The position numbers and the translations under genes are program-made. Source: Gaiellaceae bacterium (GTDB lineage: Bacteria; Actinomycetota; Thermoleophilia; Gaiellales; Gaiellaceae). Taken from it: DNA of 64,000 bases. Every line of letters starts with the position of its first letter. The stretch's first letter is position 1. Of the stretch, positions 29,091 through 64,000 are shown piece by piece. The stretch spans positions 23,182 through 87,181 of the forward strand of contig DATIBF010000053.1 in NCBI GenBank assembly GCA_035457655.1, in the 5' to 3' direction. A model generated the notes under the pieces. The model was not told the DNA's origin. It saw only the letters and a list, made by a program, of their open reading frames with translations, and made no database searches.

Positions 29091-29134
29091 ACCCCTTCTA
29101 GGCCTCGGCGCAGGCTTGTCCACGGCCGAGGGCT

Positions 29135-41577: not shown

Positions 41578-41608
41578 GCAAGGCAAATATGTGTGATTAG
41601 GAGAACAG

Positions 41609-41617: not shown

Positions 41618-41626
41618 CAGACCGTC

Positions 41627-45739: not shown

Positions 45740-45751
45740 AAGGAGACAGGT

Positions 45752-47484: not shown

Positions 47485-47537
47485 AACCCGTGTCGAAATG
47501 ACGCCTCGGGACAGGGCTTCGTTTTGACACGGGTTCT
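47483..47537 (+). promoter_or_regulatory. 16-bp stem / 23-nt loop structure pairing the sat stop codon region with the TTG start of the downstream sulfotransferase
   Basis: AGAACCCGTGTCGAAA (47483-47498) pairs with TTTTGACACGGGTTCT (47522-47537) with one G-U. TTG 47524-47526 lies inside the 3' arm. Confidence 0.6.
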
Positions 47538-50456: not shown

Positions 50457-50516
50457 GTGTCCGTCGGTAGCCCAGTCTACGTCACGGTCCGGCACGGGCC
50501 GCGCCGCCGCTCTCGC

Positions 50517-50522
50517 TAAGCT
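50517..50522 (+). promoter_or_regulatory. -10-like TAAGCT, 7 nt upstream of ATG 50530 (leaderless-type arrangement) in a 73-nt divergent intergenic region
   Basis: Fits TANNNT, with no SD. Confidence 0.3.
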
Positions 50523-50529
50523 GCGCGCG

Positions 50530-51603
50530 ATGAGCACCCCGGTGGAGCAGGGCGAGCCAACAGCCGCCGTCGAGCAGCACGCGCCGTCCGACGACCGCAC
50601 CCTCGTTCTCGTCGTCGGCTCGGGTCGCAGCGGGACGAGCCTCTTCACGGGGATCATGCAGCGGCTCGGCTTCCACGTGCCGCAGCCGGAGGTGGGCGCG
50701 GACCCGACGAATCCGCGTGGGTTCGCCGAGCCCAAGTGGGTGGTCGACTTCCACAACGGGCTCCTCGGCCGCGCCGGTGTGCAGGTCGCGGACGCGAGGC
50801 CGTCCGCCTGGGCACAGACCGGCCGGGTGGCCATCGACGAGGACGTCCGGCGCAACCTGCGGGAGTGGCTCGCGGGCGAGTTCGCGAAGGACGACCACGT
50901 CATCATCAAGGACCCCCGGCTCTCCTGGTTCCTGCCCCTCTGGCGACAGGCGGCGCTCGACGTGGGCGCGTCGCCGAGATTCGTGACCGTGCTCCGCCAC
51001 CCGGCTGCCGTCATCGAGAGCAAGCAGCGCTCCTACGGCAGCTGGCAGGGCGACGTCGAGCGGACGGCCGGCTGGGTCAACCAGGTGCTCTTCACCGAGC
51101 GGGCGACCCGCGAGGGTCCCAGGGCGTTCGTCAGGTACCAGGACCTCCTCGACGACTGGACGGGCGTGACCGCCCACGTCGGGGACGCCCTCGACCTGGC
51201 CGTCGTCCGCGACGCGCCGGCGGCGACGATCGTCCAGATCCACGAGTTCGTCGACCGCTCGCTCAGCCGCTCGCGCTCGAGCTGGGAGGACTTCGAGATC
51301 CCGGAGAGCCTTCGCACGCTCGCCGATGAGGTGTGGGACCTCGTCTCCGGCCTCGCGGATCACGAGGCCGACCGCGCGGTGCTTGATCGGCTGGAAGCGG
51401 CGCGCCTCGCCTACATCGAGCTCTACGAGGACGCCGAAGCGATCGCTCAGTCCTCGATTACGGCGGCCGCGCGCGGCTCGACCGAGCGCAGCACGGCGGT
51501 CCGGGCCCTCAGAAGGGTTCCGAAGCGCTACAAGCGGAAGATCCCGCGGAGCTGGCGCGTCACCGTCTCCCGCGCTCTGTCGCGCGGCGGCGTGAACCCC
51601 TAG
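50530..51603 (+). CDS. Sulfotransferase family protein
   Basis: LVLVVGSGRSGTSLFTGIM (P-loop-like PAPS 5'-phosphosulfate binding loop) and VTVLRHPAAVIES (3'-PB-like). Confidence 0.8.
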   Translation: MSTPVEQGEPTAAVEQHAPSDDRTLVLVVGSGRSGTSLFTGIMQRLGFHVPQPEVGADPTNPRGFAEPKWVVDFHNGLLGRAGVQVADARPSAWAQTGRVAIDEDVRRNLREWLAGEFAKDDHVIIKDPRLSWFLPLWRQAALDVGASPRFVTVLRHPAAVIESKQRSYGSWQGDVERTAGWVNQVLFTERATREGPRAFVRYQDLLDDWTGVTAHVGDALDLAVVRDAPAATIVQIHEFVDRSLSRSRSSWEDFEIPESLRTLADEVWDLVSGLADHEADRAVLDRLEAARLAYIELYEDAEAIAQSSITAAARGSTERSTAVRALRRVPKRYKRKIPRSWRVTVSRALSRGGVNP

Positions 51604-53603
51604 CTCGGAGGCTGCAGGCAGGTCAAACCCGCCGTGCGGAAGGTCGGCGAGTAGCCGGCCGCTTGCAAGGTCTCGAGAGCGCCGAGCCTCCGGCTCTCGA
51701 CACAAGCTACGTCGACCCCGACAAGGCGGAGCGCCCGGCCGACGGCCGATTCGTCGCGGGGCCGCTCGGACACTCCGGTGACCGTCGCGACGAGCTCGGG
51801 CTCGAGGATCGACTGCAGCAAGAGTCGTTCCTGCACGAAAGCCTCCGGCACGTCCTCCAGCGCTCTGGTGTAGAAGACCCTCGGAGAGACCGTCGTGACG
51901 TTGCCCGACATGATGAGCAGCGTCTGCGCGACCTGTTGGGGCGCGAGGACGACGTCACCGGGCTCTGCCCGGGCGAGGATCCGTCGCGCCGCCGTCAAAG
52001 TCTCCGGAGGACGCTTCCAGGACGGCTCGGAGCGAACAGTCCCGGCGTCCCAGATCGGGCTCCCCCAGACGATCAACGCCACGCAGAGGAGCCCTGCCGG
52101 AAGCGCACGCAGCACGGCCGGGCCGGCGCGCGGCGGCAGCGCGGTGACGGCTACTCCCACGAGAGCGGCGACCGGGACGATCCAGACGACCCGCCAGAGG
52201 ACGCGGCCGATCCCGGTGACTTCCCAGATGAACGGCGGCACCGGGGGCGCGTAGAGGACGGCCACGAGCAGCACTGTCGATGCGGCCATGAGAGCGGCGC
52301 GGCGGTCGGCGATCAGCGGGGGCCCGATCAGCGCGGCCGCGACCGCGACGAACGCCAGGAAGCCGCTCCCGAGAACGATCCTGGCGATCTCGCCAGTGGC
52401 CACGTCGGAGGAGAAGTCCTCGCCGGCCCTGCGTTGCCCTGCGGCCGCGGTGACGACGAGGGCGCCGAGCGGGTAGGCGGCAACCGCCGCGAGCCCGAGC
52501 GCCGCCTCCCTGACGGAACGCAGGGCCAGTGGAGCGAGGCACCCCGCGCCGAGCGCCAGGAGCACGAAGGTTCCGCTGCTGGTCAGGCCCACCCCGGCCG
52601 CTCCGGCAGCGGCAAGTAGCACGAGCGCGCGCCGAGTGGGCCGCTCCGAGTACTCCTGCGCGAGGACGAACAGGACGGGGACGAGAACGACGAGCAGGAT
52701 GATCTTCCCCTGCCAGATGCGCCCGACGAACAGGTTGCCGAGGGTTCGGTGCTCCTCGGCGGCTATGACCAAGAAGACCATCGCGGTGGTGAGGGCGAGC
52801 CCGACGAGCGGCACTTTCCATGCGCGCAGCAGCCGCCACGTGGCCAGGACGCCGAGGACCGTCGCCAGCGGCGTGACGACCAGATAGGTCACGCCGGCGG
52901 CCGAGACGCCGACGGCTCCGGCAAGCGAGCCGATCAGCGCCTCGAAGGACGAGATTGGCGGGTAGATGATCGCCGGGAAGACCTCGTCGGAGAAGAGCGT
53001 GTCCCGCAGCGGAAAGCTGCCGTGCTCGGCGATCCACGTGGACAGATGGACGTACTGCGTGTCGTCGGCGTCCGGGCGGACGAAGAGCAACGAGAACACC
53101 GCGAGTCCGGCCGCCCAGACGAAGGCCACGACGGTTCCCGGCCACGCCCGCGCGCCGTCGGCCGCGAGGTCGAGGCGAAGTCGCCCGGTCGCCCTCAGGT
53201 ACGCGAGGCCCGTCCCTGCGGCCGCGGTCAGGAAGAGCAGGAGCCAGACGACCGCCCAGCGCGCCTCGGCGAACGCGTAGACGGCGGCGCTCAGGCCCAC
53301 TGCCGCCGAGTAGCCGCAGAGCGCGAGGGCCAGCCGGCTTGGCGGCCAGGCCGCGGGCCGCGACGGCTCGTGTGTGGGCCGTGCGTCGTCATCGCGCCGG
53401 AAGGCAATCCACGCTGACGCGACGAGCCCGGCTGCCCAGGCGATCAGAGCCCAGACGGCGTCGATTCCGAGCACCACGCACGCGTGGTAGACGACGGTCC
53501 ACGCGGCAAGGGCGAGCACGACGAAATCGAGCAAGCCGTCGCAACCGCGCGCGATACCGGCCGGCGGCAGCTGGAACGACCTTCCCGCACGCAAGTCCAC
53601 CAT
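51600..53603 (-). CDS. Large polytopic membrane protein, GT-C-like (putative lipid-carrier-dependent glycosyltransferase)
   Basis: 667 aa from ATG 53603 (MVDLRAG...), with more than 12 hydrophobic helices followed by a roughly 150-aa soluble C-terminal domain. The listed 928-aa ORF start is antisense to the next gene. Confidence 0.7.
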   Translation of the reverse strand: MVDLRAGRSFQLPPAGIARGCDGLLDFVVLALAAWTVVYHACVVLGIDAVWALIAWAAGLVASAWIAFRRDDDARPTHEPSRPAAWPPSRLALALCGYSAAVGLSAAVYAFAEARWAVVWLLLFLTAAAGTGLAYLRATGRLRLDLAADGARAWPGTVVAFVWAAGLAVFSLLFVRPDADDTQYVHLSTWIAEHGSFPLRDTLFSDEVFPAIIYPPISSFEALIGSLAGAVGVSAAGVTYLVVTPLATVLGVLATWRLLRAWKVPLVGLALTTAMVFLVIAAEEHRTLGNLFVGRIWQGKIILLVVLVPVLFVLAQEYSERPTRRALVLLAAAGAAGVGLTSSGTFVLLALGAGCLAPLALRSVREAALGLAAVAAYPLGALVVTAAAGQRRAGEDFSSDVATGEIARIVLGSGFLAFVAVAAALIGPPLIADRRAALMAASTVLLVAVLYAPPVPPFIWEVTGIGRVLWRVVWIVPVAALVGVAVTALPPRAGPAVLRALPAGLLCVALIVWGSPIWDAGTVRSEPSWKRPPETLTAARRILARAEPGDVVLAPQQVAQTLLIMSGNVTTVSPRVFYTRALEDVPEAFVQERLLLQSILEPELVATVTGVSERPRDESAVGRALRLVGVDVACVESRRLGALETLQAAGYSPTFRTAGLTCLQPPS

Positions 53604-53627: not shown

Positions 53628-55340
53628 ATGAAGCTGACAGCGACGACGCACGAGGCGCCAGGCGCATCGCCGCCGGCATCCGAGCCGACCGTTTTGCGGG
53701 CGATGCCTTCGTCTCGGCTCGACTGGGTGGTCGGCGGGATCACGGTCGCCCTGTACCTGCTCGGCCAGCTCGTGTACCTGCAGGGCCCGCATCCCTACGA
53801 CCCCTCGTGGTACTTCCGCACGGCCTTCGACTTCCCGGACGTTGCCCCGGACCTCTTCACCCTGCGCATCGGCCTCATGGCCCCGGTCCGCGCCGCGCTC
53901 GGGGTCTTCGGGCCCTCGGAAGCCGCCCTCTACGCCGTTCCGCTCCTCTCGGGCATGGCCCTCGTGGGAGCGGTCTACGCGACCATGCTCCTGCTCTTCC
54001 GAGATCGTCTGCTCGCCGCTGCGGCGGCGCTCGTGACCGGGCTGAACGTCAACTACCTGGTCAACTCGAGCCAGATCTTCCCCGATCTCACCGCGACCGC
54101 GACGTTCACCGCCGCGTTTCTCTGCCTCTTGATCGCCGGCTCGCGGCCGCAGGAGTCCCCGCGCACGTGGGTGCCGACCGCGGCCGTGGTCTGCGGCGGC
54201 GTCCTCCTCGGCTGGAGCTACCTCGTGCGTGAGTTCAGCCCGATCCTCCTCCCCGCCGTCATCGCCCTGGTGCTCCTCCTCCGCTATCCCCTCCGTCGGA
54301 TTGTCCTGCTCGCGGGCGCTGCGGTGGCCACGGCAGCGCTCGAGCTCCTCTACGGCTGGGTGTACGCAGGCGACCCGTTCGTGCACCTACGGCTCCTGCT
54401 CGAGCGAGGCGACGCCGAGCTTGTCGAAGGCCAGGTTCGGATGGAGCACATCCAGGACCAGCTCGGCAGCCCCCTCGACACACTGCTCGTCCTCCCGCGC
54501 CTGCTCCTGGCCTGGGACACGGGCTGGGTGTTCCTTCTGCTGGCCGCGCTCCTCCTGGTGGCGCTCGTGCTGCTCCGAGACCGCCGTCTCTGGCTGCTGG
54601 CGGCCTGGTTCCTGAGTTTTCTCGTCGCGATGGCGCTCGTCGGGCTGGGGTCGTTCTCCTCGGGCCGCTGGGTCCTGAACATCACGAACATCCGCTACTG
54701 GTATCCGGTCTTTCCGCCGCTCGTGATGGGGGCGTTCGGCGGCCTGTGGCTCCTTCTGCGCAGGCGGATCGACGGACGACGCGGGCTCCGCGCGGCGCAG
54801 CTGGGTGCCGTCGCGCTCGCGGCCCTGGTGCTGATCCCCGGCTTCCGCGAGTTCTCGCGGTGTGACGACAGAGAAGCGTGGAGGAACGACCCGGCCACGC
54901 GCTGGCACGAGCTCCGTTCGTGGTTCTCGACTCCCGAGGCTGCGCAGATGGACGTCGTGTGGACCGACCCGTACACGAGCCGCCTCCTTCCCGCCTTCAC
55001 CGGGTCGACCTTCGGAGTGCGGGTCTGGGACGGCGACGTCGAGACGCTGGACTCCTTCGGGGACGTGCCGTCCACCGGTGATCCCGCGACCTTGCTCCTG
55101 GTGCACAAGGACCGCTGGGTCGCCCGGGAGGACGCGTCTCAGGCGCTCGAAGCGCTTCGCGAGGAGTGGGCGCCGGTGTTCGTCACCGGCGACAAGAGGA
55201 TGGTCGTGCTCGCCCCTCGCGGGGCGGCGATCACGGACGAGGTGCCGGCGGGCGGGGAGTGGTGGAACCTGTGGACCGGCTTCGTGCCGGTGGCACCGGG
55301 CGGTACGTGCGGCCGCAACCCGTACGACCTCGGCGCCTAG
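53628..55340 (+). CDS. Polytopic membrane protein, GT-C/ArnT-PMT-like (putative glycosyltransferase)
   Basis: Multiple TM helices plus a C-terminal soluble domain. YDPSWYFRTAFDFPDV first-loop region. Alternative start ATG 53703 (MPSSRLDW...). Confidence 0.7.
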   Translation: MKLTATTHEAPGASPPASEPTVLRAMPSSRLDWVVGGITVALYLLGQLVYLQGPHPYDPSWYFRTAFDFPDVAPDLFTLRIGLMAPVRAALGVFGPSEAALYAVPLLSGMALVGAVYATMLLLFRDRLLAAAAALVTGLNVNYLVNSSQIFPDLTATATFTAAFLCLLIAGSRPQESPRTWVPTAAVVCGGVLLGWSYLVREFSPILLPAVIALVLLLRYPLRRIVLLAGAAVATAALELLYGWVYAGDPFVHLRLLLERGDAELVEGQVRMEHIQDQLGSPLDTLLVLPRLLLAWDTGWVFLLLAALLLVALVLLRDRRLWLLAAWFLSFLVAMALVGLGSFSSGRWVLNITNIRYWYPVFPPLVMGAFGGLWLLLRRRIDGRRGLRAAQLGAVALAALVLIPGFREFSRCDDREAWRNDPATRWHELRSWFSTPEAAQMDVVWTDPYTSRLLPAFTGSTFGVRVWDGDVETLDSFGDVPSTGDPATLLLVHKDRWVAREDASQALEALREEWAPVFVTGDKRMVVLAPRGAAITDEVPAGGEWWNLWTGFVPVAPGGTCGRNPYDLGA

Positions 55341-55366
55341 GCGGAGGGGTGCCCACGGGCACTCGG

Positions 55367-55372
55367 TATCCT
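55367..55372 (+). promoter_or_regulatory. -10-like TATCCT, 8 nt upstream of ATG 55381
   Basis: Fits TANNNT, with no SD before the ATG. Confidence 0.25.
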
Positions 55373-55380
55373 CCTCGCCC

Positions 55381-56886
55381 ATGGCCAACCGCGTGCTCGT
55401 CGTCGGCTGGGACGGCGCCGACTGGGACGTCCTCGACCCGCTCCTCGCCGCCGGCGAGCTGCCCGCGCTCCAGGAGCTGATCGCGCGCGGCCGGCGGGGC
55501 GTATCGCGCTCGTGTCTTCCGTCCCATTCCTGGGCCGCCTGGCCGACGTTCCTCACCGGCAGGGACCCGGCGGGCCATGGGGTGTTCGACATCCTCGAGT
55601 ACCGCCCCGGGGCGACGCGGCGGCTGCCGGTCTCGTACCGCTCCATCCTCGCGCCGACGTGGCCCGACCGGCTGTCCGCGGCCGGGAAGGCGACGCTGCT
55701 CGTCAACGTGCCGCTGACGTACCCGCCGCCGGAGATCCGGGGCGTGGCAATCGCCGGGGGCGTCGTCCCCCCCGGACGGACGTTCAGCCACCCTGCCGAC
55801 GCCGGCCCGCGACTGGGCTGGCCGATCAACGGCGGCTCGTGGACGACGCTCCGGCACAAGCCGCTCCAACTCGTCGCCGAGCTCGAGCAGCTGACTCGCA
55901 GGCGTGCCGCCGCCGTGCGCACGCTCCTGGACGAGGAGCCTTGGGACGCGGCCTGCATCGTCTTCGTCTCGCCCGACCGGCTCCAGCATTGCCTGCTCGA
56001 GTACGTCCACCCCGAGCATCCCCGGCATGCAGAGGTGGCCGCCTCGCCCGTCGGCGACCGCGTGCGCGACGTCTATCGTCTGCTCGACCGCGAGCTGCGC
56101 ACCCTGGAGGCCCGGACCGACGACGACGACCTCGTCGTCCTCATGTCGGACCACGGTCACCAGCCCGTGACGCGGGCGCTCTCGATGAACAAGGTGCTCG
56201 AGCACCTCGGCTTTCTGCGCTTCGGCCGCGGCTCCGGGCTCGTCAACCTGCTCGCGTGGGGCCGGGTTCGGTCGCTCGCGCGGGTCGTGTACGACCGGCT
56301 GGGGCTGCACGGGCGCGTCGCCGTCCCGACTGCGCCCATCGACTGGGCGCACACGATGGCCTACACGAGCGTGATCTCCACGGGCGAGGGCGTCTCCCTC
56401 AACCTCGCAGGCCGCGAGCCAAACGGCATCGTCGCGGGCGCCGACTACGAGCGCGTGCGCGACGAGGTCGCCGCCGCCTTGCTCGAGCTCACGGACCCCG
56501 AGACGGGCGCGCATCCGATCGGCGGCGTGCTCCGCAAGGAGGACGTGCTCGCCGGCCCGTACCTGGACCGCGCCCCCGACCTCCTTCTCCAGCCGGCGCC
56601 GCTCTACAGCCTCACGCATGCTCGCCAGCTCGTCGAGGAGGCCGACTGGCTCTCCGGCGACCACCGGCCTGAGGGGATCTACGCGCTCGCCGGGCCGGGC
56701 GTCGATCCGGGTGAGGGCCCCGAGACTTCCCTCGCGGACTTCGCGGGCCGGATCGCCGAGGCGGTCGGGCTCGATCCCGACCCGGAGTGGGGCCGCAGCC
56801 CCTCGGGAGAGGCGGTCGGCGTCTTCAGCGAGGAGGAGGAGCGCCTGGTGGAGGAGCGACTCCGCGGCCTTGGCTATCTCGAGTAG
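55381..56886 (+). CDS. Alkaline-phosphatase-superfamily protein, NPP/phosphodiesterase type (second copy in the window)
   Basis: VLVVGWDGADWDVL, LPSHSWAAWPTFLTGRDPAGHGVF, VLMSDHGH and GDHRPEG. Confidence 0.85.
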   Translation: MANRVLVVGWDGADWDVLDPLLAAGELPALQELIARGRRGVSRSCLPSHSWAAWPTFLTGRDPAGHGVFDILEYRPGATRRLPVSYRSILAPTWPDRLSAAGKATLLVNVPLTYPPPEIRGVAIAGGVVPPGRTFSHPADAGPRLGWPINGGSWTTLRHKPLQLVAELEQLTRRRAAAVRTLLDEEPWDAACIVFVSPDRLQHCLLEYVHPEHPRHAEVAASPVGDRVRDVYRLLDRELRTLEARTDDDDLVVLMSDHGHQPVTRALSMNKVLEHLGFLRFGRGSGLVNLLAWGRVRSLARVVYDRLGLHGRVAVPTAPIDWAHTMAYTSVISTGEGVSLNLAGREPNGIVAGADYERVRDEVAAALLELTDPETGAHPIGGVLRKEDVLAGPYLDRAPDLLLQPAPLYSLTHARQLVEEADWLSGDHRPEGIYALAGPGVDPGEGPETSLADFAGRIAEAVGLDPDPEWGRSPSGEAVGVFSEEEERLVEERLRGLGYLE

Positions 56887-56901
56887 CCCGTCCCGAGCGG
56901 C

Positions 56902-58371
56902 GTGAGCGAAGAGCGCACGCTCCTCTCGGGCACGGCGGCGAACGTCGTCGGCCTCGGCGTTGGGGTGGCGGCGGCCATGGGCACGCAGATCCTGCTCGGC
57001 CGGACGCTCCTGCCGGGCGCGTTCGGCATCGTCACGGTCGCCGTCCAGGTCGCGTTCGTCGCGTCGGCGGGAACCCGCTTCGGCATGGACATGGCCGCGG
57101 TGCGGCTGGTCGCGATCGGCCGAGGCGCGAGCGCGGCCGACCATCTCCGCAGCCTCGTCGACCGCTGCGCGCTCATCGCCTTCGCCGCCAGCATCGTACT
57201 CGCCGCCGTACTCGCGGCGTCGGCGCCGCTCTTCGGCGACTACGCCCGGGCCATCGCGCTCGCCGCGCCGGGGATCCCCTTCATCGCACTCACGAGCGTC
57301 TACCTCGGCGCCACGCGGGGACTGACCCAGATGCGGCAGACCCTCTACGTCTTCTGGATCGGCCAGCCGCTCGTCTGGATCGTCCTCGCGGGAGCCGCGA
57401 TCGCCGCAGGCGGCGAGAGCGACGCGGTCATCCTCGCCTACGGCGCCTCCTGGCTCGTCGCGTCCCTGGCCGCCTGGGCCCTCTGGCGCTGGGAAGCACG
57501 CGCCTTCGCGGGCCGGCCGGCCACCAGGGAGGAGGTGCGCGCGGTCATCCGCTACGGGCTTCCGCGCGCGCCGGCGGCGCTGCTCGCCCAGGCGATCTTC
57601 TGGGCGGATCTCTGGGTGCTCGCCGCCTTCGAGCAGGGAACCGAGCTCGACGCCTACTCGGCCGCGGCCCGCATCTCGCAGGTGCTGCTCCTCTTCCTCA
57701 CGTCGCTCAACCTCGTCTTCTCCCCGTTTGCCGCCGACCTCCACGCCCGTGGCGAGCGCGAGCGGCTCGGAGAGCTCTTCAAGCGCAGCACCCGCTGGGC
57801 GCTCGCGGCCACGCTGCCACTCCTGATCGTCCTCTTCGTCGCCGCCGACGACGTCCTGGAGGCGTTCTCGAGCCGGTACGAGGTAGGCGAGAGCGCCCTT
57901 CGCATCCTCCTCGCCGGCCAGGCCGTGAACGTCGCCACCGGCGGCGTCGCCTTCATCCTGATCATGACCGGGTTCACCGGCGTCGACCTCGTCGACAACG
58001 CGCTCGGCCTGGCACTCCTCGTGGGCCTCGCAGTCGGGCTCACCGCCGCCTTCGGGATGGAGGGCGCCGCGGCTGCCGCCGCCGTGAGCATCGCCGTCTT
58101 GAACGTCGTGCGCCTCGTCCAGGTCCGCCGCCGCGTCGGCATCCAGCCCTACGAGCGCGCCTATGTCGGCCTTGCCTTGCCGGCGGGAGCCGCCGCCCTG
58201 ACCGCCGTCGTGCTCCAGGCCGCACTCGCCGGCCGGGCCTGGTGGGTCTCGCTGGCGGCGACCGCCGCGGGCGCCTTCATCGCCTACGCGGCGGTGCTTC
58301 CCGTCGTCCTGCCTGCGGCCGAGCGTGCGCTCTTGACCGCGCCGGTGGTGCGGCTCAGACGGGGCACCTGA
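56902..58371 (+). CDS. Wzx/MOP-superfamily oligosaccharide flippase-like protein
   Basis: 489 aa with about 12-14 TM helices. The loop spacing and charged loops are typical of polysaccharide biosynthesis (PST) proteins. Confidence 0.75.
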   Translation: MSEERTLLSGTAANVVGLGVGVAAAMGTQILLGRTLLPGAFGIVTVAVQVAFVASAGTRFGMDMAAVRLVAIGRGASAADHLRSLVDRCALIAFAASIVLAAVLAASAPLFGDYARAIALAAPGIPFIALTSVYLGATRGLTQMRQTLYVFWIGQPLVWIVLAGAAIAAGGESDAVILAYGASWLVASLAAWALWRWEARAFAGRPATREEVRAVIRYGLPRAPAALLAQAIFWADLWVLAAFEQGTELDAYSAAARISQVLLLFLTSLNLVFSPFAADLHARGERERLGELFKRSTRWALAATLPLLIVLFVAADDVLEAFSSRYEVGESALRILLAGQAVNVATGGVAFILIMTGFTGVDLVDNALGLALLVGLAVGLTAAFGMEGAAAAAAVSIAVLNVVRLVQVRRRVGIQPYERAYVGLALPAGAAALTAVVLQAALAGRAWWVSLAATAAGAFIAYAAVLPVVLPAAERALLTAPVVRLRRGT

Positions 58372-58479
58372 ACTGGGCGGCCGGTCCGGCGGTGGCGGCT
58401 GCTATGGTCGCCGGTTGCTGCAGGTCATCATCGAGGCGCGGGAACACGCGCAGGCTGTGAAAACGGAAGGGAGCTCCGA

Positions 58480-59655
58480 ATGCGGGTCCTGATTCTCGGC
58501 GGCGACGGCTACCTTGGTTGGCCCACGGCCATGCGCTTCTCCGGGCAGGGTCACGAGGTCGCGGTGGCCGACAGCTTCGCGCGCCGCCGCTGGGTCGAGG
58601 AGGCCGGCTCGCATTCCCTCACTCCCATCGTCTCCCTCGTCGAGCGGATCCAGGCCTGGAGCGAGGTCTCGGGCAAGGACATCGAGCCGTACGTCGGCGA
58701 CATCGCCGAGGGCACCTTCATCGCCGACGTCGTCCGGGAGTTCGAGCCCGACGCGATCGTCCACTACGGCGAGCAGCCGAGCGCGCCGTGGTCGATGAAG
58801 AGCGTCGACCACGCGGTCATGACGCAGGCGAACAACGTCATCGGCTCGCTCAAGCTTCTGTGGGCGATGCGCGACTACGCCCCCGCCGCCCACCTGATCA
58901 AGCTCGGGACGATGGGCGAATACGGAACGCCCAACATCGACATCGAGGAGGGCTTCATCGAGATCGACCACAAGGGCCGCAAGGACACCCTTCCCTTCCC
59001 GAAGCTGCCCGGGTCGCTCTACCACCTCTCGAAGGTGCACGACAGCCACAACATCCACTTCGCGTGCCGAATCTGGGGGCTCCGCGCGACCGACCTCAAC
59101 CAGGGCGTCGTCTACGGCATCGAGACTCCCGAGACGCGCCTCGACGACCGCCTCATCACGAGGTTCGACTACGACGAGCTGTTCGGCACGGCCCTGAACC
59201 GGTTTGCCGTGCAGGCCGTGATCGGGCACCCACTGACGGTCTACGGGAAAGGCGGCCAGACGCGCGGGTTCCTGAACATCGTCGACACGCTGCAGTGCGT
59301 CTCGCTCACGGCGGAGAACCCGCCGACCGAGGGCGAGTACCGCGTTTTCAACCAGTTCACGGAGGTCTTCAACGTCGGCGACCTGGCGGAGAAGGTCCGC
59401 CACGCCGCGGGCGAGCTCGGGATCGACGTGCGGGTCGACCACGTGACCAACCCGCGTCTCGAGCTGGAGGAGCACTACTACAACCCGACGCATACGAAGC
59501 TCCTCGAGCTGGGACTGCAGCCGACGCTGCTCTCCGAGACCCTGATCGAGTCCATGCTCGAGGTCATCCGCCGCTACCAGGATCGCGTCCTCGCCGACGT
59601 CATCGATCCGGTGACGCAGTGGCGCCCTGAGCCGCTGAGTCAGCGCGCGGAGTAG
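58480..59655 (+). CDS. sqdB: UDP-sulfoquinovose synthase (SQD1/SqdB/Agl3 family)
   Basis: Near-collinear match to plant SQD1 as I remember it: ILGGDGYLGWPTA, SLTPI, HYGEQPSAPWSM, KLGTMGEYGTPNIDIEEG, catalytic YHLSKVHD (Tyr-His...Lys), RATDLNQGVVYG, FGTALNRF, HPLTVYGKGGQTRGFL, RVFNQFTE and EEHYYNPTHTKL. Confidence 0.9.
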   Translation: MRVLILGGDGYLGWPTAMRFSGQGHEVAVADSFARRRWVEEAGSHSLTPIVSLVERIQAWSEVSGKDIEPYVGDIAEGTFIADVVREFEPDAIVHYGEQPSAPWSMKSVDHAVMTQANNVIGSLKLLWAMRDYAPAAHLIKLGTMGEYGTPNIDIEEGFIEIDHKGRKDTLPFPKLPGSLYHLSKVHDSHNIHFACRIWGLRATDLNQGVVYGIETPETRLDDRLITRFDYDELFGTALNRFAVQAVIGHPLTVYGKGGQTRGFLNIVDTLQCVSLTAENPPTEGEYRVFNQFTEVFNVGDLAEKVRHAAGELGIDVRVDHVTNPRLELEEHYYNPTHTKLLELGLQPTLLSETLIESMLEVIRRYQDRVLADVIDPVTQWRPEPLSQRAE

Positions 59656-59669
59656 GGCACTCGGGCGAG

Positions 59670-60722
59670 ATGGACCTGACGCCGCTTCGGGCCGCCGGGC
59701 TGCTTGCGGCGCTCGCGTTCGCGGTCGTCTCCATCTGGGCGTACCGCCGGCGGCGAATCGGCAACGGCGACCTGATCCTCCGGTTCGGGTTCTTCGTCCT
59801 CCCGCTGCTCGTCGTCTCCCTGCAGCCGGCGATCTTCAGCTGGTTCCTCGACCTATTCTCCTTCAACGAGGAGGGCGCCGGCCGGATCCTCGGCGCCGCG
59901 ATCGTGGCCGTCGCGGTGCTCTACGTTCTTGGCTACATCCTCGCCTCGCGCCAGGAGAAGACACGCCGCGACCTGACGCGGCTGATCGAGAACCTCGCCC
60001 TGAACGAGTTCCAGGCGACGGCCGACGTCGACGAGTTCGCCGGCGGGATCGCCGTCGTCATCCCCGCCTACAACGAGGCCGGCAACATCGGCCTGGTGAT
60101 CGCGAGCCTGCCCCCCGAGGTCTCCGGTCTCGAGCTCCACGCTATCGTGGTCGACGACGGCTCCTCCGACGAGACGATCGGCCGCGCGCGTCAGGCTGGG
60201 GCGGCGGCGGTGCACCTCCCCCTCAACCGCGGCCAGGGCGCGGCGCTTCGCACCGGCTACAGGTTGGCCCTCGCGACGGGCGCGCGCCTCGTCGTGACCA
60301 TGGACGCGGACGGCCAGCACCAGCCCTCCGAGCTCCCCCGCCTCGTCCAGCCGATCCTCGACGACGAGGTGGACGTCGTCAACGGCTCTCGCGTCCTCGG
60401 CGCGGCCGACCCGAACCATGCCGCCCGGATACTGGGCATCAAGGTCTTCGCCTGGGCCCTCTCGCTCTTGACGACCAGCCGCGTCACCGATCCTGCGTGC
60501 GGCTATCGCGCCGTCCGCACCGAAGCGCTCCGCGAGCTCGAGTTCCACCAGGACCAGTTCCACAACTCGGAGTTCATCCTCGAGGCGTCCAAGCGCAAGC
60601 TCAGGACGATGGAGGTGCCGGTGACGGTGTCGAGCCGGCTCTCGGGGGCGTCGAAGAAGCCGCCGCACTTCCGCTACGGGCTGGGGTTCGCGAACGCTCT
60701 GCTCCGGGCGTGGCTGCGCTAG
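59670..60722 (+). CDS. GT2 glycosyltransferase of the polyprenyl-phosphate-sugar synthase type, with an N-terminal three-helix membrane module (DUF2304-like)
   Basis: Three N-terminal TM helices, then IAVVIPAYNEAGNIG, VVDDGSSDET, LNRGQGAALRTG, VTMDADGQH and NGSR. Confidence 0.85.
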   Translation: MDLTPLRAAGLLAALAFAVVSIWAYRRRRIGNGDLILRFGFFVLPLLVVSLQPAIFSWFLDLFSFNEEGAGRILGAAIVAVAVLYVLGYILASRQEKTRRDLTRLIENLALNEFQATADVDEFAGGIAVVIPAYNEAGNIGLVIASLPPEVSGLELHAIVVDDGSSDETIGRARQAGAAAVHLPLNRGQGAALRTGYRLALATGARLVVTMDADGQHQPSELPRLVQPILDDEVDVVNGSRVLGAADPNHAARILGIKVFAWALSLLTTSRVTDPACGYRAVRTEALRELEFHQDQFHNSEFILEASKRKLRTMEVPVTVSSRLSGASKKPPHFRYGLGFANALLRAWLR

Positions 60723-62581
60723 CGGACCGCGACGGCAGTACCGCAGAGTCGGAGGCGAGGCCGGAAGCGTTCGTCCGCGTCCTTCGCTCTCGTCTCTTCG
60801 AGGAAGCCCTCGTCGTGACGATCGCGCTCCTGGCCACGCTGCATGCCGAGTGGCGCATCGTCTCGCAGGCGCTGACTTTCCAGACGGACTCGATGATCCA
60901 CGAGTTCTGGATGCGACGGTTCCGGGACGACGGGCTCTTCGGCGACCCGCTCACCGAGTCTCTCCTCGAGACGGGCTACAGCCCACCCGCATTCCGTGCC
61001 CTGTACTGGCTTGCGAGCCGCGTCGTCGACCCGGTCACGTTCGGCGAGCTGCTGCCCCTCGTGCTCCAGCCGCTGGCCGTGTGGCTGGTTTTCAGGATCG
61101 TCCGCACGCAGGTGTCCTGGCGTCCCGCCGCTTGGATCTCGGGCGCTCTCTTTCTCGTGCCGTGGGAGATACACCGCTTCAGCGGCGGCCACCCCCGCGC
61201 GTTCGCGCAGCCGATCGTGTTACTGACCGTCCTCCTACTGCTCTCACGGAGGAACCGCGCCGCGGCCCTCGTCCCGCCCGTTGGGCTCCTCCTCTATCCG
61301 CCCGCCGGCGTCGTCGCTCTCGCCGTCGTGCTGCTTTCGACGCTCGCCCGAGATCGGCGCGCCTACGTCGATGTCGAGCGCGCACGCTGGGCTGCCGTCA
61401 GCGTTCTGGGAGTTGTGGCGGCGTTCGTCCTCACGCGGTTCACGACCGGATCGCAGGATGTGATCACGGAGGCCGAGGCTCGCCTCTACCCCGAGTTCGG
61501 ACCAGGCGGCCAGATGCACTTCTTCGCCTCGTCGACGCTCGAGTACCTGCGCCAGAACTACAGCGGCTTCTTCCTTCAGGAGTCCGGCTCGATCATCGCG
61601 GTCACCGCGCTGCTCCTCCTGCTCGTCCGTCCGTCCAACACGCGGCTCCTCCGCTGGGAGGTCTGGACGATTCCGATCGTCGCGCTCGCACTCTTCCTCC
61701 TCGCGCACGCCCTCCTCTTCCGTCTCTACCTTCCACACCGCTACACGTACGCGCTGCTGCCGTTCTTCTGCATCGCCATAGGAGTCTTCCTGCGTCCCAC
61801 TCTCCAGGCCCTCTCCGCGCGTGGGCGTGCTGCCCTCGTCGTGGCACCGTTGCTCGGGCCGGCCGCCGCCTTCCTCGCGTTGGCGTTCTTCCCGCTCGGA
61901 CCTCGCTTCTCGGTCGCGGAGTTCGGCTCCTGGCTGGCGGACGCGGCGCCCGAGCTCGTCGTGGGTCTACTCGCAGGGCTCCTCTTGGCGGTGGCACTCT
62001 GGCCCAGGGAGCCCGGAGGAGCACGCTCGTTCGCGGCGGCGGCGCTCGCCGTGCCGGCGGCGCTCGTCACCGCGGCAGTGCTGGTCGCGACGGTTGCCGT
62101 CGCGGGTGGTGGACGGAGCCCTGGAGCAGTTGCCTGCCAGGAAGCCGAGCTCTACAGCTTCCTCGAGACCGTGCCGAAGGAGTCGGTCCTCGCGGCCGAC
62201 CCGCTCGACGCGAACTGCATCCCGATCGCCGCCCGGCGACCCGTCGTGATCTCGCGGAAGCTCTACCAGCCGTGGGCGGTCGAGTACTTCGACGTCATCC
62301 GCGAGCGGATGTCCGCCTCCGTCGAGGCGTTCTACGGCCCCTCGCTGTCGGCGGTGACCGAGCTGCGCGAGCGCTACGGAGCTGACTACCTCGTCGTTCG
62401 CACCCGCGGCCAGGCACACGCCTGGGGGAGCATGCAGCCGTTCACGAGCGAGGTTTCACGGCTCCGGCGCACGACCGAGGTACCCGCGGTGGAGCGACTG
62501 CCCCGTCGCTGCCTCTCGTGGAGCGGGGAGCGCTACGAGGTCTACAGCCTCGCCTGCCTGGCCGGGGAGGAGTCGGCGTGA
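60710..62581 (+). CDS. Large polytopic membrane protein (GT-C-like candidate) with a C-terminal soluble domain
   Basis: About 12 TM helices followed by a roughly 150-aa extracytoplasmic-looking tail. GTG 60710 overlaps the GT2 stop; GTG 60815 is an alternative start. Confidence 0.7.
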   Translation: MAALADRDGSTAESEARPEAFVRVLRSRLFEEALVVTIALLATLHAEWRIVSQALTFQTDSMIHEFWMRRFRDDGLFGDPLTESLLETGYSPPAFRALYWLASRVVDPVTFGELLPLVLQPLAVWLVFRIVRTQVSWRPAAWISGALFLVPWEIHRFSGGHPRAFAQPIVLLTVLLLLSRRNRAAALVPPVGLLLYPPAGVVALAVVLLSTLARDRRAYVDVERARWAAVSVLGVVAAFVLTRFTTGSQDVITEAEARLYPEFGPGGQMHFFASSTLEYLRQNYSGFFLQESGSIIAVTALLLLLVRPSNTRLLRWEVWTIPIVALALFLLAHALLFRLYLPHRYTYALLPFFCIAIGVFLRPTLQALSARGRAALVVAPLLGPAAAFLALAFFPLGPRFSVAEFGSWLADAAPELVVGLLAGLLLAVALWPREPGGARSFAAAALAVPAALVTAAVLVATVAVAGGGRSPGAVACQEAELYSFLETVPKESVLAADPLDANCIPIAARRPVVISRKLYQPWAVEYFDVIRERMSASVEAFYGPSLSAVTELRERYGADYLVVRTRGQAHAWGSMQPFTSEVSRLRRTTEVPAVERLPRRCLSWSGERYEVYSLACLAGEESA

Positions 62582-63702
62582 GCGGCCCGCTGAGCTCCGG
62601 GCGGCGCAGGCGGCTCACCTCCTATGTCCTCGCCACCGCGGTGACGGTGGCCTTCGCGTACCTCGCCGTGCGCGACGTCGACGTCGCCGAGCTCGGCCGG
62701 TCATTACGCGAGAGCAACTACTGGTATCTCGTACCCGCGTTCGCCCTCCTGGCTCTTGCCTTCTTCATGCGCGTCCTCCGCTGGCGCTCGTTGTTCTCCC
62801 CCCGGACGCGACCCGGTCTGTGGCCGCTCTCGAAGGCGCTCCTGCTCGGTCAATTCTTGAACAACGTTCTCCCCTTCCGAGCGGGTGACGCGGCTCGTGT
62901 CGTCGTCTTGCGATCGTTCGGCGGCCCGTCCCGGGTCGAGACGGCCGGGACCGTCGTCGTCGAGCGGATCTTCGACGTTCTCGCGCTCCTCCTGCTCCTC
63001 TTCGTTTCTTTGCCGTGGCTTCCCGAGGTGACGTGGATCCAGGCGGCGGGCACGCTCGCGATCGCGTTCGTCGTCCTCGTGGCAGCCGCAGTCGTCGTCT
63101 TGCGCGTGTACGGCGAGAGAGCCGTCGGTTTCGTCCTGCGTCCGCTGGTCCGCCTTCCCTTCCTCTCACCGAAGCGCGTCGAGGCGGCCGTCCGAAATCT
63201 GACCGTGGGAGTCATCGCCCTACGGAGCGCGCGTGTCGGGCTCGTCGGCTTTGCCTGGACGCTGCTCTCGTGGGTCGTCTTCGGCTTCTCGTTCTGGTTC
63301 GTCATGCTCGGATTCGATCTCGGGCTGTGGCCGGAGGCAGGCGTCTTCGTCGTCATCACGACCGGACTGTCCCACCTCCTTCCGTCGGCGCCGGCCGCGG
63401 TTGGCGTGTTCGAGGCCGCGGCCGTCGTGGCGTTGATCGCCTACGGGATCCCGCGCGCGGAGGCGCTCTCATACGCGCTCGTCGTGCACGCGCTTAGCGT
63501 GCTCCCGTTCGTGGCGGCGGGCCTCCTTCTCGTCAGCCTGCGTGGGCGCGACCAGGGTCTTCGCGCCGAGGAATCGGCTTTCCAGGCCTCCGGTCCCTCC
63601 GTGCTTCGCGGAGACCGGGAGCGGGCGGGCGACGACGAGGACGACGTCACCCAGCCAGCCAACCGGCAGCCTGAAGTCGACCAGGCTCGTGAGTCGCGCT
63701 GA
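62578..63702 (+). CDS. UPF0104 / lysyl-PG-synthase-TM-like (flippase-like) membrane protein
   Basis: The GTG overlaps the upstream stop (GTGA). FFMRVLRWRSLF, LLLGQFLNNVLPFRAGDAARV and about 8 TM helices. Confidence 0.75.
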   Translation: MSGPLSSGRRRRLTSYVLATAVTVAFAYLAVRDVDVAELGRSLRESNYWYLVPAFALLALAFFMRVLRWRSLFSPRTRPGLWPLSKALLLGQFLNNVLPFRAGDAARVVVLRSFGGPSRVETAGTVVVERIFDVLALLLLLFVSLPWLPEVTWIQAAGTLAIAFVVLVAAAVVVLRVYGERAVGFVLRPLVRLPFLSPKRVEAAVRNLTVGVIALRSARVGLVGFAWTLLSWVVFGFSFWFVMLGFDLGLWPEAGVFVVITTGLSHLLPSAPAAVGVFEAAAVVALIAYGIPRAEALSYALVVHALSVLPFVAAGLLLVSLRGRDQGLRAEESAFQASGPSVLRGDRERAGDDEDDVTQPANRQPEVDQARESR

Positions 63703-64000
63703 GGCCTCGCCGCCCCGCCCGAGGCTCGACTTCATCCGGTTGGCGACATACGAGAGGTGGAACGAGCGGGGGACGAGCGCCCACTCCACCATCCTGTAGC
63801 CCGCCGAGCGTAGAAGCGCCTCGACCGTGGCGGGTGTGAAGTAGTGCAGGTGGGGACGGATCAGCCAAGGCCATCTCTCTCCTCGCAGCCTCGCGTGGAG
63901 GCCTGCGAGGTTGATCGTGGAGAGCGTGAGCAGGCCCTCGTCGTCGAGCAGCGTCCGAAGTCTCCGGAGCGCGTCGAGCGGATCCACGAGGTGCTCGAGG
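63469..64000 (-). CDS. Class I SAM-dependent methyltransferase, C-terminal part (5' end beyond the right edge of the window)
   Basis: The frame is open to nt 64000 (LEHLVDPLDALRRLRTLLDDEGLLTLST, HLHYFTPATVEALLRSAGY and VVLVVARP). Confidence 0.7.
   Translation of the reverse strand, partial: LEHLVDPLDALRRLRTLLDDEGLLTLSTINLAGLHARLRGERWPWLIRPHLHYFTPATVEALLRSAGYRMVEWALVPRSFHLSYVANRMKSSLGRGGEASARLTSLVDFRLPVGWLGDVVLVVARPLPVSAKHGGTGGLESRFLGAKTLVAPTQADEKEARRHEREHAKRVHDERV

Follow-up and report, generated by a model that had tools for sequence, protein, structure and literature searches.

Organization of the sqdB locus

The window analyzed here, a stretch of 64,000 nucleotides from a soil actinobacterium of the Gaiellaceae, contains a + strand string of seven genes (53628-63702) whose order is kept in six related genomes, and the homology and fold matches obtained at this locus are far above the chance level. 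The coordinates, spacings and motifs described in a first-pass annotation, which was made from the DNA letters alone, were all found in place. The genes listed there for the operon stood, but its start at 53628, upstream of sqdB, had been missed together with a second GT-C gene and a gene for an alkaline-phosphatase-superfamily phosphodiesterase, as had another Dpm1-like GT2 that carries a methyltransferase fusion and converges on the operon from the right edge of the window. Inside the operon, 14 nt separate sqdB from the following GT2 gene, the GT2 gene and that of a polytopic protein (POLY) overlap by 13 nt, and the POLY and UPF0104 genes overlap by 4 nt.

The first gene of the string (53628-55340, +) encodes a GT-C glycosyltransferase of the GT39/PMT_2/ArnT-like type. 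The protein itself had no match in Pfam, and its homologs carry PF13231/PF02366 and names such as 'GT39' and 'ArnT-like'; the best Foldseek matches of its AF2 model (pLDDT 78, pTM 0.83) were STT3, AglB, ArnT, DPY19, AftA and Pmt4. The start given for this gene by NCBI lies 25 codons further in. It is followed by the gene of the phosphodiesterase/nucleotide pyrophosphatase (55381-56886, +; Pfam Phosphodiest, 2.7e-29), a protein with no obvious signal peptide that is kept beside the module in Gaiellaceae loci and is also present, with 56% identity, in a distant sqdB locus (L050). The third gene (56902-58371, +) ends 108 nt upstream of sqdB and encodes a candidate Wzx-like flippase of the MOP family (Pfam Polysacc_synt 6e-13, MatE 4e-8), as had been proposed. 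A Wzx-like gene is also found upstream of sqdB in loci L001, L002 and L005-L008, and by analogy the protein resembles GacK.

SqdB and the probable supply of sulfite

The sqdB gene (58480-59655, +) encodes a protein of 391 aa that matches Arabidopsis SQD1 (PDB 1qrr; E 1.7e-151) along its full length, over residues 2-383. The catalytic Thr and the Tyr-His-x-x-Lys signature, contained in the motifs KLGTMGEYG and YHLSKVHD, are identical in both proteins. Judged by its sequence, SqdB is thus a bona fide, full-length SQD1 homolog with intact catalytic residues, which bears out its previous identification as a UDP-sulfoquinovose (UDP-SQ) synthase. Its match to the NCBIfam model UDPsulfquin_syn (E 9e-151) scores 502 bits and falls short of the curated equivalog cut-off of 575, as could be expected if the protein made another nucleotide sugar, or if the GT2 used another donor and the adjacency of the two genes had no functional meaning. 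We consider this most improbable in view of the full-length SQD1 match with identical catalytic and substrate motifs, the conservation of the sqdB/GT2 adjacency over GC contents from 0.33 to 0.72, and the sulfite- and PAPS-producing genes that surround the locus. These genes, cysH (45032-45739, +; Pfam PAPS_reduct 7e-48), cysC (45740-46351, +; Pfam APS_kinase 5e-61) and sat (46351-47484, +; ATP-sulfurylase 9e-99), are present about 11-13 kb upstream of sqdB, where the annotation had placed sat and cysH, and are likely the source of the sulfite used by SqdB as well as of PAPS for neighboring sulfotransferases.

A DUF2304-GT2 fusion of the polyprenyl-phosphate type

The gene following sqdB (59670-60722, +) encodes a Dpm1/GacI/PpgS-type protein of 350 aa in which Pfam domains DUF2304 and Glycos_transf_2 are fused. 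The latter covers residues 129-289 (E 7e-23), with the GT2 motifs PAYNE, DDGSSD and DADGQH. The N-terminal module consists of three transmembrane helices and passes the DUF2304 cut-off of 25.5 bits with 28.9 bits over residues 9-113; the three-helix module had been recognized before, but not its membership in the known GacJ/Rv3632 family. GacJ and Rv3632 associate with GacI and PpgS, increase their activity and in some cases form a single polypeptide with them; partners of this type are known only from polyprenyl-phosphate-sugar synthases. The fusion resembles a single-chain equivalent of GacJ plus GacI or of Rv3632 plus PpgS. A positive-inside topology derived from the sequence places the GT2 domain in the cytoplasm.

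The four best NCBIfam matches of the protein were PpgS (1.7e-30), AglJ (4.9e-25), dolichyl-phosphate hexose transferase (1.2e-20) and ArnC (3.7e-14), and its best sequence matches in the PDB were the Pyrococcus furiosus Dol-P-Man synthase and ArnC (5mlz, 9hwj). Its closest characterized relatives are therefore exclusively polyprenyl-phosphate sugar synthases (PpgS, AglJ, DPMS, ArnC), in agreement with the class first assigned to it. It scores far under the equivalog cut-offs of every characterized polyprenyl-phosphate synthase, so that its donor and acceptor are inferred. We predict it to be a polyprenyl-phosphate sulfoquinovose synthase. Grouping with diacylglycerol-directed or processive GT2 enzymes was not observed, and the significant matches included no diacylglycerol glycosyltransferase.

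The comparison of sqdB neighborhoods that had been suggested revealed a pairing conserved across very different genomes. Among 29 metagenome loci with fusion-type GT2 homologs (34-51% identity), four were uninformative, and sqdB adjoined the fusion gene in 19 of the remaining 25, with GC contents of 33-72%. The same arrangement was found in all six related Gaiellaceae loci (6/6), whereas around generic GT2 relatives sqdB was present at only 2 of the 43 loci. The sqdB/DUF2304-GT2 core pair occurs in a wide range of unrelated bacteria from the environment. At distant loci, the pair is repeatedly accompanied by UPF0104 genes and by GT-C genes from other families (YfhO-like, PMT_2), GT-C genes being found near it in four independent lineages; on the other hand, no GT-C gene was found within about 5 kb in the largest group of distant loci (GC about 0.70).

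The only use of UDP-SQ established in bacteria is, to our knowledge, the sulfolipid SQDG. No GT4 or GT8 enzyme was found among the 47 window ORFs scanned, so that the description of the operon as lacking sqdX and sqdD holds for these ORFs; a canonical SQDG synthase may be encoded elsewhere in the genome. Both points would fit a GT2 that acts as a non-canonical sulfolipid synthase in place of SqdX/SqdD, transferring SQ directly onto diacylglycerol, phosphatidylglycerol or another lipid; the UPF0104 protein would then flip the completed glycolipid, a role already proposed for MprF, GpgF and HexF, and the GT-C genes would be unrelated. The many distant sqdB-GT2 loci with no nearby GT-C gene and the UPF0104 proteins encoded in the glycerolipid-glycosylation operons gpgSDF and hexSDF are also consistent with such a role, which we nevertheless regard as unlikely given the GT2 matches, the DUF2304 partner and the recurrence of GT-C genes near the pair. 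In addition, GT2 enzymes are inverting, and the product would therefore be beta-linked, unlike SQDG, which is alpha-linked.

The GT2 might also add SQ in the cytoplasm to a growing undecaprenyl-diphosphate-linked oligosaccharide, which the Wzx-like protein would then flip. This would resemble the situation proposed in Sulfolobus, where a membrane-bound glycosyltransferase encoded next to agl3 would add SQ to the Dol-PP-linked N-glycan in the cytoplasm, and it agrees with the position of the Wzx-type gene and with the Bac_transf initiating transferase and ABC-2 exporters present in related loci. However, the GT2 subfamily and the GacJ-type module favor a monophosphate carrier product, Wzx-type proteins serve monophosphate carriers too, as GacK shows, and the ORFs scanned (window about 27-64 kb) included no initiating phosphoglycosyl transferase, all of which makes cytoplasmic addition very unlikely.

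GT-C proteins and candidate flippases

POLY (60710-62581, +; GTG start at 60710) is a protein of 623 aa with 13 transmembrane helices, equal in length and sequence to VLA87_03830 (NCBI, Gaiellaceae MAG), and had no match in Pfam or NCBIfam. Its AF2 model (pLDDT 89.4, pTM 0.90) shows a 13-helix GT-C fold; ArnT (5ezm, 8e-7) was its first Foldseek match, followed by STT3, DPY19, PglB, Emb and ALG9, and the top 26 matches were all GT-C proteins. Acidic residues D60, D73, D79 and D107 are conserved in the first outer loop, cysteines C503, C601 and C616 are invariant, and the C-terminal outer domain contains Cys. On the basis of the model, POLY is a GT-C-fold glycosyltransferase and a candidate transferase for a lipid-linked sugar; it belongs to a new family confined to Thermoleophilia. 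The annotation had suggested a GT-C protein here and had named a missing GT-C fold or acidic first-loop motif, like a diacylglycerol-type GT2, as findings against its reading; each such check that was run came out in favor of it.

The UPF0104 gene (62578-63702, +), whose start overlaps POLY by GTGA as first described, encodes an LPG_synthase_TM membrane protein similar to the MprF flippase domain (Pfam 1.8e-46; TIGR00374 'flippase-like domain' 5.7e-22). Proteins of its family are predicted to flip AglD-type Dol-P-sugars, and we consider the protein a candidate flippase. Abutting it, the convergent GT2-methyltransferase gene (63469-64000, -; 3' part, running off the window edge) was matched by tblastn to the complete ortholog L005:12794-15115(-). 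This fusion combines Pfam GT2 and Methyltransf_23 domains, and its GT2 domain is also AglJ/PpgS-like (NCBIfam AglJ 3e-20, PpgS 1e-14).

Proposed pathway for sulfoquinovose

Altogether, we propose, with a probability of about 0.6, that the operon loads SQ onto a polyprenyl-monophosphate carrier for an extracytoplasmic envelope acceptor, a prediction that we consider well supported. Sulfite would be provided by Sat, CysC and CysH, and SqdB would convert UDP-glucose and sulfite into UDP-SQ in the cytoplasm, as its strong SQD1 homology indicates. At the inner leaflet, DUF2304-GT2 would transfer SQ to undecaprenyl or decaprenyl phosphate, yielding beta-SQ-P-polyprenol, a step suggested by its family, its topology and the conserved sqdB adjacency. 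The lipid-linked SQ would be flipped by the UPF0104 protein, the Wzx-like protein or both, and at the outer face a GT-C protein would pass it to a glycan, lipoglycan or protein. Three-component glycosylation of this kind is already known; the predicted system would be a novel form of it. We found no paper describing polyprenyl-phosphate-SQ, and the pathway, if true, would be a use of SQ through a polyprenyl-phosphate carrier not described before in bacteria.

The GT-C protein acting on SQ would be either POLY, whose 13-nt overlap with the DUF2304-GT2 stop suggests translational coupling, or the GT39-like 53628-55340 protein, a candidate alternative transferase. POLY homologs (40-59% identity) are accompanied by UPF0104 and the GT2-methyltransferase fusion, with no sqdB, in at least ten loci, one of which (L003) also contains dTDP-rhamnose genes, and these two proteins are the ancestral partners of POLY. 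As the GT2-methyltransferase fusion is also encoded at this locus, the lipid-linked sugar used by POLY may be another one, and a specific link of POLY to SQ is uncertain. Two carrier systems might thus lie side by side: SQ-P-polyprenol would be made, flipped by the Wzx-like protein and used by the 53628 GT-C or one encoded elsewhere, while POLY and UPF0104 would serve the GT2-methyltransferase enzyme, which would load the carrier with another sugar, perhaps a methylated or 6-deoxy one. The GT-C and Wzx-like genes upstream of sqdB, a layout mirroring GacI/J/K/L, fit this possibility, which we regard as less likely than the pathway above. Against it stand, besides the gene overlap, the POLY phylogeny, in which the sqdB-linked sequences form one clade, and loci L007 and L008, in which sqdB, GT2 and POLY are kept but neither a UPF0104 nor a GT2-methyltransferase gene lies within 10 kb, DUF2304-GT2 being the only Dpm1-like GT2 found near POLY in both.

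Gene organization and the UDP-sulfoquinovose synthase

The window has a GC content of about 71%, and a string of + strand genes begins in it at position 53628. Three genes precede sqdB: those for a second, GT39-like GT-C protein (53628-55340; recognized by homologue annotation and Foldseek) and an alkaline-phosphatase-superfamily phosphodiesterase (55381-56886; Pfam), both missing from the first-pass annotation, and a Wzx-like gene (56902-58371) separated by 108 nt from the gene for the UDP-sulfoquinovose (UDP-SQ) synthase SqdB (58480-59655). After a gap of 14 nt comes the gene for a GT2 glycosyltransferase (59670-60722), which overlaps by 13 nt the gene for a 623-aa polytopic protein, here called POLY (60710-62581), and this in turn shares a 4-nt GTGA overlap with the UPF0104 gene (62578-63702), the last of the string. 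ORF listing and start-codon checks exactly reproduced the coordinates and spacings of the first-pass annotation, and every motif quoted in it was found. The genes for the GT2 synthase, the flippase candidate and the GT-C protein are adjacent, overlapping and on one strand, as in three-component systems of the Gtr, Arn or GacIJKL type, and their products would be functionally coupled to one another. A promoter and terminator scan of the 53-64 kb interval revealed nothing exceeding shuffled expectation, the operon limits being defined by gene spacing only.

A convergent gene on the - strand enters the window with its 3′ end (63469-64000). The product of its counterpart in L005, a locus 83-97% identical to the window (L-numbers denote loci found in scans of other genomes and metagenomes), is a fusion of a GT2 with a SAM methyltransferase, and the GT2 part again resembles AglJ and PpgS. 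This GT2-methyltransferase gene and the UPF0104 gene share up to 234 nt at their 3′ ends (63469-63702), with high third-position GC in both frames, and the same overlap is present in L005; beyond the folded domains, low-complexity tails overlap over about 100 nt.

Comparison of SqdB with Arabidopsis SQD1 (PDB 1qrr, phmmer) revealed a full-length extended SDR match (E 1.7e-151, residues 2-383 vs 3-384) in which the SQD1 family-specific insertions are retained and the segments KLGTMGEYG and YHLSKVHD are identical, including the catalytic residues T145, Y182, H183 and K186. The score against the NCBIfam equivalog NF041015 (502.1 bits, E 9.4e-151) is under the curated cut-off of 575, which we read as clade-specific because of the SQD1 match. 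The proposed SQD1/SqdB/Agl3-type identity is thus borne out by this match, with the catalytic Thr and the Tyr-His-x-x-Lys signature kept; strong homology indicates that SqdB is a UDP-SQ synthase, and it is very unlikely that this homologue has a different product. No GT4 (Glycos_transf_1) or GT8 (Glyco_transf_8) match was found in the 47 window ORFs scanned, a set that left out about eight weaker candidates, in agreement with the reported absence of sqdX and sqdD beside sqdB.

A GT2 of the polyprenyl-phosphate sugar synthase type with a fused DUF2304 module

The Pfam GT2 domain of the protein following SqdB covers residues 129-289, with DADGQH as the DxD motif of the GT-A catalytic domain. Its best four NCBIfam matches were PpgS (1.7e-30), AglJ (4.9e-25), a haloarchaeal dolichyl-phosphate hexose transferase (1.2e-20) and ArnC (3.7e-14), and the nearest solved structures were the Dol-P-Man synthase of P. 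furiosus (5mlz) and ArnC. All these matches are below the equivalog cut-offs, indicating a member of the superfamily branch that is an orthologue of none of them. No diacylglycerol glycosyltransferase appeared among the significant matches in NCBIfam or PDB, and the sole processive synthase listed, PgaC/IcaA, reached only 1.8e-7. By computed sequence similarity, the protein is therefore assigned to the polyprenyl-phosphate sugar synthases, as had been suggested, with PpgS, AglJ and ArnC as nearest relatives and apart from diacylglycerol-directed and processive GT2s.

The three-helix N-terminus of this GT2 corresponds to Pfam PF10066 (DUF2304; residues 9-113, 28.9 bits vs a cut-off of 25.5), fused in cis. 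The DUF2304 family comprises small membrane proteins such as S. pyogenes GacJ and M. tuberculosis Rv3632, which bind and stimulate the polyprenyl-phosphate-sugar synthases GacI and PpgS and are occasionally fused to them (10.1101/180810; PMC6487176); a DUF2304-GT2 fusion has already been seen in Geobacter and other genera (10.1101/180810). The presence of the module suggests that the window protein is a single-chain enzyme of the GacJ-GacI/PpgS type, and, judging by where its positive charges lie, the catalytic part faces the cytoplasm.

Association of sqdB with the fusion GT2 across genomes

The pairing of the two genes was counted by a metagenome scan with the GT2 followed by tblastn for SqdB. 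The GT2 match covered the DUF2304 region in 29 loci, with 34-45% identity to the window protein and GC contents of 0.33-0.72. SqdB (39-70% identity) was found in 19 of these, usually as the adjacent upstream gene; six were negative, and four were uninformative because they have less than 700 nt of upstream sequence. Among loci matching the catalytic domain only, that is, generic Dpm1-like GT2s, SqdB was present in 2/43. The GC range indicates that the pair is kept well beyond Actinomycetota. We assign a probability of about one half to the reading that this pair of sqdB and a GacJ-GacI-type fusion marks a widespread, phylum-spanning pathway for sulfoquinovosyl-phosphopolyprenol, with SQ placed on envelope glycans or proteins in many non-photosynthetic bacteria, including the abundant soil Gaiellaceae. 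The conserved core of two genes is small, which makes the prediction directly testable.

The neighbours of the distant pairs include a UPF0104 gene (L060), two YfhO-like GT-C genes (L050) and a PMT_2 GT-C gene (L072), and large unclassified polytopic proteins are encoded nearby in L050, L053, L056 and L072. In L050 (14523-19498), the pair is flanked by the two divergent YfhO-like genes and by three gene copies for an unclassified polytopic protein of 500-720 aa. The largest distant group (GC about 0.70) has a class-V aminotransferase gene as its conserved upstream neighbour and no GT-C gene within about 5 kb of the pair. Such loci without a nearby GT-C would suit direct synthesis of an SQ glycerolipid by the GT2 followed by flipping by the UPF0104 protein, a route with precedents in gpgSDF and hexSDF (PMC12713373), but this route is disfavoured by the relatives of the GT2, by its GacJ module and by the stereochemistry of GT2 enzymes, and we consider it unlikely.

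In seven loci with the pair (L046, L047, L052, L054, L057, L061 and L065), the gene directly upstream is class-V aminotransferase/cysteine-desulfurase-like (e.g., 5141-6550 in L054) and may provide an alternative sulfur supply in this GC-0.70 lineage, in which PfkB-kinase and AIR-synthase-related genes lie downstream on the opposite strand. Locus L056 contains, besides the fusion GT2 and the large polytopic protein, a GT4 gene (599-1807, +; Glycos_transf_1, E 1.3e-8) about 1 kb upstream of sqdB; it could be SqdX-like, in which case both routes would occur in one organism. Four of the six negative loci (L044, L048, L070 and L077) have the fusion GT2 without sqdB; downstream of it come genes for another GT2, a UPF0104 protein, two sulfotransferases and a large TPR protein (about 10000-18000 in L077). 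For sulfate esters, these clusters may correspond to what the SQ system is for sulfonates. In one negative locus, a PMT_2 GT-C gene is directly downstream of the fusion GT2.

POLY and the GT39-like protein as predicted GT-C glycosyltransferases

POLY is identical to the hypothetical protein VLA87_03830 of a Gaiellaceae MAG, which assigns the window to an uncultivated bacterium of the Thermoleophilia (Actinomycetota). It had no Pfam or NCBIfam match at E<=0.01, and a profile of 45 sequences gave only noise (E>0.2) against all PDB sequences; some homologues carry faint DUF2079 or PF19830 marks and nothing else. The assignment of POLY to the GT-C proteins is thus based on fold. The AF2 model, built with 45 homologues (pLDDT 89.4, pTM 0.90), comprises 13 long helices and, at the C-terminus, an alpha/beta domain, and its first outer loop is long and includes short helices, in line with the features that define the GT-C fold (N-in, about 13 TM helices, a long outer loop 1 with juxtamembrane helices and a C-terminal outer domain). 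The best 26 Foldseek matches in PDB were all GT-C proteins, with ArnT first (E 7.9e-7; TM-scores normalised by the ArnT chain of 0.54 for 5ezm and 0.57 for 5f15), followed by STT3, DPY19, PglB, EmbA/B and ALG9. Loop 1, on the extracytoplasmic side, contains two acidic residues that are invariant among the 45 homologues (D79 and D107) and two with at least 90% conservation (D60 and D73); three invariant cysteines in the C-terminal domain fit an extracytoplasmic location. The modelled structure and the conserved acidic residues of loop 1 thus agree with the GT-C-like character attributed to POLY in the first-pass annotation, and computation assigns it a predicted GT-C fold outside every described GT-C sequence family of Pfam and NCBIfam.

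A scan with POLY, limited to one genome per species, yielded 38 loci, all in Gaiellales or Solirubrobacterales MAGs. The sqdB and DUF2304-GT2 genes were found upstream of POLY only in the nearest clade, with POLY at least 64% identical (L001, L002 and L005-L008). The remoter homologues stand alone or beside UPF0104 and the GT2-methyltransferase fusion. Neighbour-joining placed the sqdB-linked POLYs in a single clade, nested among lineages linked to UPF0104 and GT2-methyltransferase; these ancestral partners are absent from the vicinity in L007 and L008. Tree and neighbourhoods together suggest that POLY likely belonged to an old three-component module with UPF0104 and the GT2-methyltransferase, into which sqdB and the fusion GT2 were inserted later.

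The module of POLY, UPF0104 and GT2-SAM methyltransferase recurs in Thermoleophilia (L003 at 10001-17852, L009, L010, L011, L016, L019, L020, L036 and L037) and appears not to have been described previously. In L003, it is followed by dTDP-rhamnose genes (rmlA, B, C and D-like). These gene contents suggest that the module handles a methylated or 6-deoxy sugar on a lipid carrier.

The GT39-like protein has homologues with PF13231/PF02366 annotated as PMT_2, GT39 or ArnT-like. Its model has a moderate pLDDT of 78, and its best 17 Foldseek matches were all GT-C proteins, including STT3, AglB, ArnT, DPY19, AftA and Pmt4, so that a GT-C fold is also computationally predicted for this protein. Hhalign gave no signal when the POLY profile was compared with the GT39-like window protein and vice versa, or when both profiles were compared with the large polytopic proteins lacking Pfam matches beside the sqdB-GT2 pair in L053 and L056 (all probabilities <1%). 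The gene cluster that would have made the GT39-like protein a widely conserved partner consists instead of the phosphodiesterase ORF, over-extended at its N-terminus. L050 contains a copy of the window phosphodiesterase with 56% identity, so this enzyme may be a true, conserved component of the SQ module.

Proposed pathway and its significance

In the pathway that we infer, with its SQ donor, polyprenyl carrier, flippase and acceptor, Sat, CysC and CysH would supply sulfite, SqdB would form UDP-SQ, and the fusion GT2 would transfer SQ to polyprenyl phosphate at the inner leaflet. The SQ-P-polyprenol would be beta-linked, since GT2 glycosyltransferases are inverting, and with a second inversion SQ on the envelope would be alpha-linked. 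The carrier-linked sugar would then be flipped by one or both of two candidates, the UPF0104 protein and the Wzx-like protein, and a GT-C would transfer SQ on the outer side of the membrane. The UPF0104 protein matches PF03706 (LPG_synthase_TM; residues 17-315, 159.5 bits vs 33.4, E 1.8e-46) and TIGR00374 (78.6 vs a cut-off of 43.2), a family predicted to be the flippase for AglD-type Dol-P-sugars (PMC5898192); for the Wzx-like protein, a parallel exists in GacK, the Wzx-type flippase of GacIJKL (10.1101/180810).

The weakest link of this scheme is which GT-C uses SQ. Translational coupling to the GT2 and the monophyly of the sqdB-linked clade speak for POLY, whereas the gene of its ancestral donor synthase, the GT2-methyltransferase fusion, still lies close by, which speaks against. 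The GT39-like GT-C and the Wzx-like gene upstream of sqdB would likewise complete a GacIJKL-like set.

SQ is among the most abundant organosulfur compounds, and nearly all of its production is credited to SQDG in phototrophs, some archaeal N-glycans being a niche use. A literature search of limited coverage found no polyprenyl- or dolichyl-phosphate SQ and no SQ in bacterial glycans. If correct, the proposed pathway would be a third fate of UDP-SQ beside SQDG and archaeal N-glycans, and an unrecognised SQ source for soil sulfoglycolysis and the sulfur cycle, offering SQ degraders a non-photosynthetic substrate. SQ-P-polyprenol would be a new donor molecule for glycobiology, a strongly anionic, sulfatase-resistant sulfonate decoration of actinobacterial envelopes would be predicted, and functions would be given to a new GT-C family and to many proteins annotated as "DUF2304 family protein".

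Comparison with known systems

Known three-component systems include Gtr, Arn, GacIJKL, PpgS/Rv3632/Rv3779 and CsbB/GtcA/YfhO. The logic of the operon is that of these systems, and the new element is the sugar; its parts belong to the respective superfamilies but stay under every orthologue-level cut-off. Kinship with the hopanoid proteins HpnB and HpnL was rejected, the matches being weak (4e-10 and 2e-7) and far under the cut-offs. The parts list resembles that of GacI/GacJ/GacK/GacL, which adds the GlcNAc side chain of the group A carbohydrate in S. pyogenes with a Dpm1-like GT2 making sugar-P-undecaprenol, a three-helix DUF2304 activator, a Wzx-type flippase and a GT-C transferring the sugar outside the membrane (10.1101/180810). 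In the window, however, the predicted donor is UDP-SQ instead of UDP-GlcNAc, the GT-C is of an undescribed family, and a UPF0104 protein and a second GT-C are added.

The M. tuberculosis system for galactosamine on arabinogalactan is likewise actinobacterial and contains the best NCBIfam match of the GT2, PpgS (Rv3631), together with Rv3632 and Rv3779, a GT-C transferring the sugar from a polyprenyl-phosphate donor outside the membrane. With 106 bits against the PpgS cut-off of 370, the window GT2 is not a PpgS orthologue; the sugar also differs, and synthase and activator are fused here, whereas Rv3632 is a separate DUF2304 protein stimulating PpgS (10.1101/180810; PMC6487176). The archaeal AglD-type module (Makarova et al. 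2015) also unites a Dpm1-like GT2, UPF0104 and a PMT/STT3-like GT-C in one neighbourhood, but it serves N-glycan decoration without SQ, and UPF0104 rather than DUF2304 is usually the part fused to the GT2. In ArnC/ArnE-F/ArnT and GtrA/GtrB/Gtr(type), a GT2 loads C55-P and a small flippase and a periplasmic GT-C follow; POLY resembles ArnT most closely in structure, and the GT2 matches ArnC significantly in sequence. Arn and Gtr differ in their flippase families and act on lipid A and O-antigen, and the GT2 of the window has an N-terminal DUF2304 module and no C-terminal TM helices.

The pathways to SQDG (GT4 SqdX/SQD2 or GT8 SqdD) and the Sulfolobus Agl3 pathway share the first enzyme, UDP-SQ synthase. 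Unlike the SQDG pathways, the partner here is a polyprenyl-phosphate-type GT2, with no GT4 or GT8 in the window ORFs scanned. In Sulfolobus, a membrane-bound glycosyltransferase encoded beside agl3 has been proposed to attach SQ to a Dol-PP-linked glycan (PMC4388408), whereas a monophosphate carrier is proposed here. This precedent would favour cytoplasmic addition of SQ to an Und-PP-oligosaccharide exported by Wzx, to which we give very little weight in view of the subfamily of the GT2.

Sulfur genes and further envelope genes in the window

Upstream of the operon, the window encodes ComA, CysH, CysC, Sat, three sulfotransferase-domain proteins and a DUF6077 polytopic protein. On the + strand upstream of cysH-cysC-sat lie a flavoprotein gene (FAD_binding_2; within 41597-45072), genes for class-I fumarate-hydratase-like alpha and beta subunits (42784-43713 and 43857-44297) and the gene for ComA, a (2R)-phospho-3-sulfolactate synthase (44206-45072). 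This actinobacterial group (41597-45072) looks like a second sulfite-consuming pathway, with chemistry of the sulfolactate or coenzyme-M type. In the unrelated locus L044, a gene for a similar flavoprotein precedes that of the fusion GT2.

Two sulfotransferase-domain proteins (47485-48534 and 50383-51603, +) and an 831-aa protein with Sulfotransfer_2 and a weak GT2 signal (48537-51032, -) are encoded between the PAPS genes and the GT-C genes. The related loci L005 and L007 contain sulfatases, and together these genes give the appearance of an island for sulfated as well as sulfonated envelope glycans. The DUF6077 membrane protein gene (51600-53603, -) is divergent from that of the GT39-like GT-C, with starts only about 25-100 nt apart; its product is conserved in L005 (84%) and may be a third GT-C-like enzyme. 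Further envelope genes on the + strand encode a GT87-like GT-C mannosyltransferase (12572-13942), a NAGPA phosphodiester glycosidase with a FlgD-Ig domain (29102-30877) and a CapD/PglF-type membrane-anchored sugar dehydratase (32661-34580).
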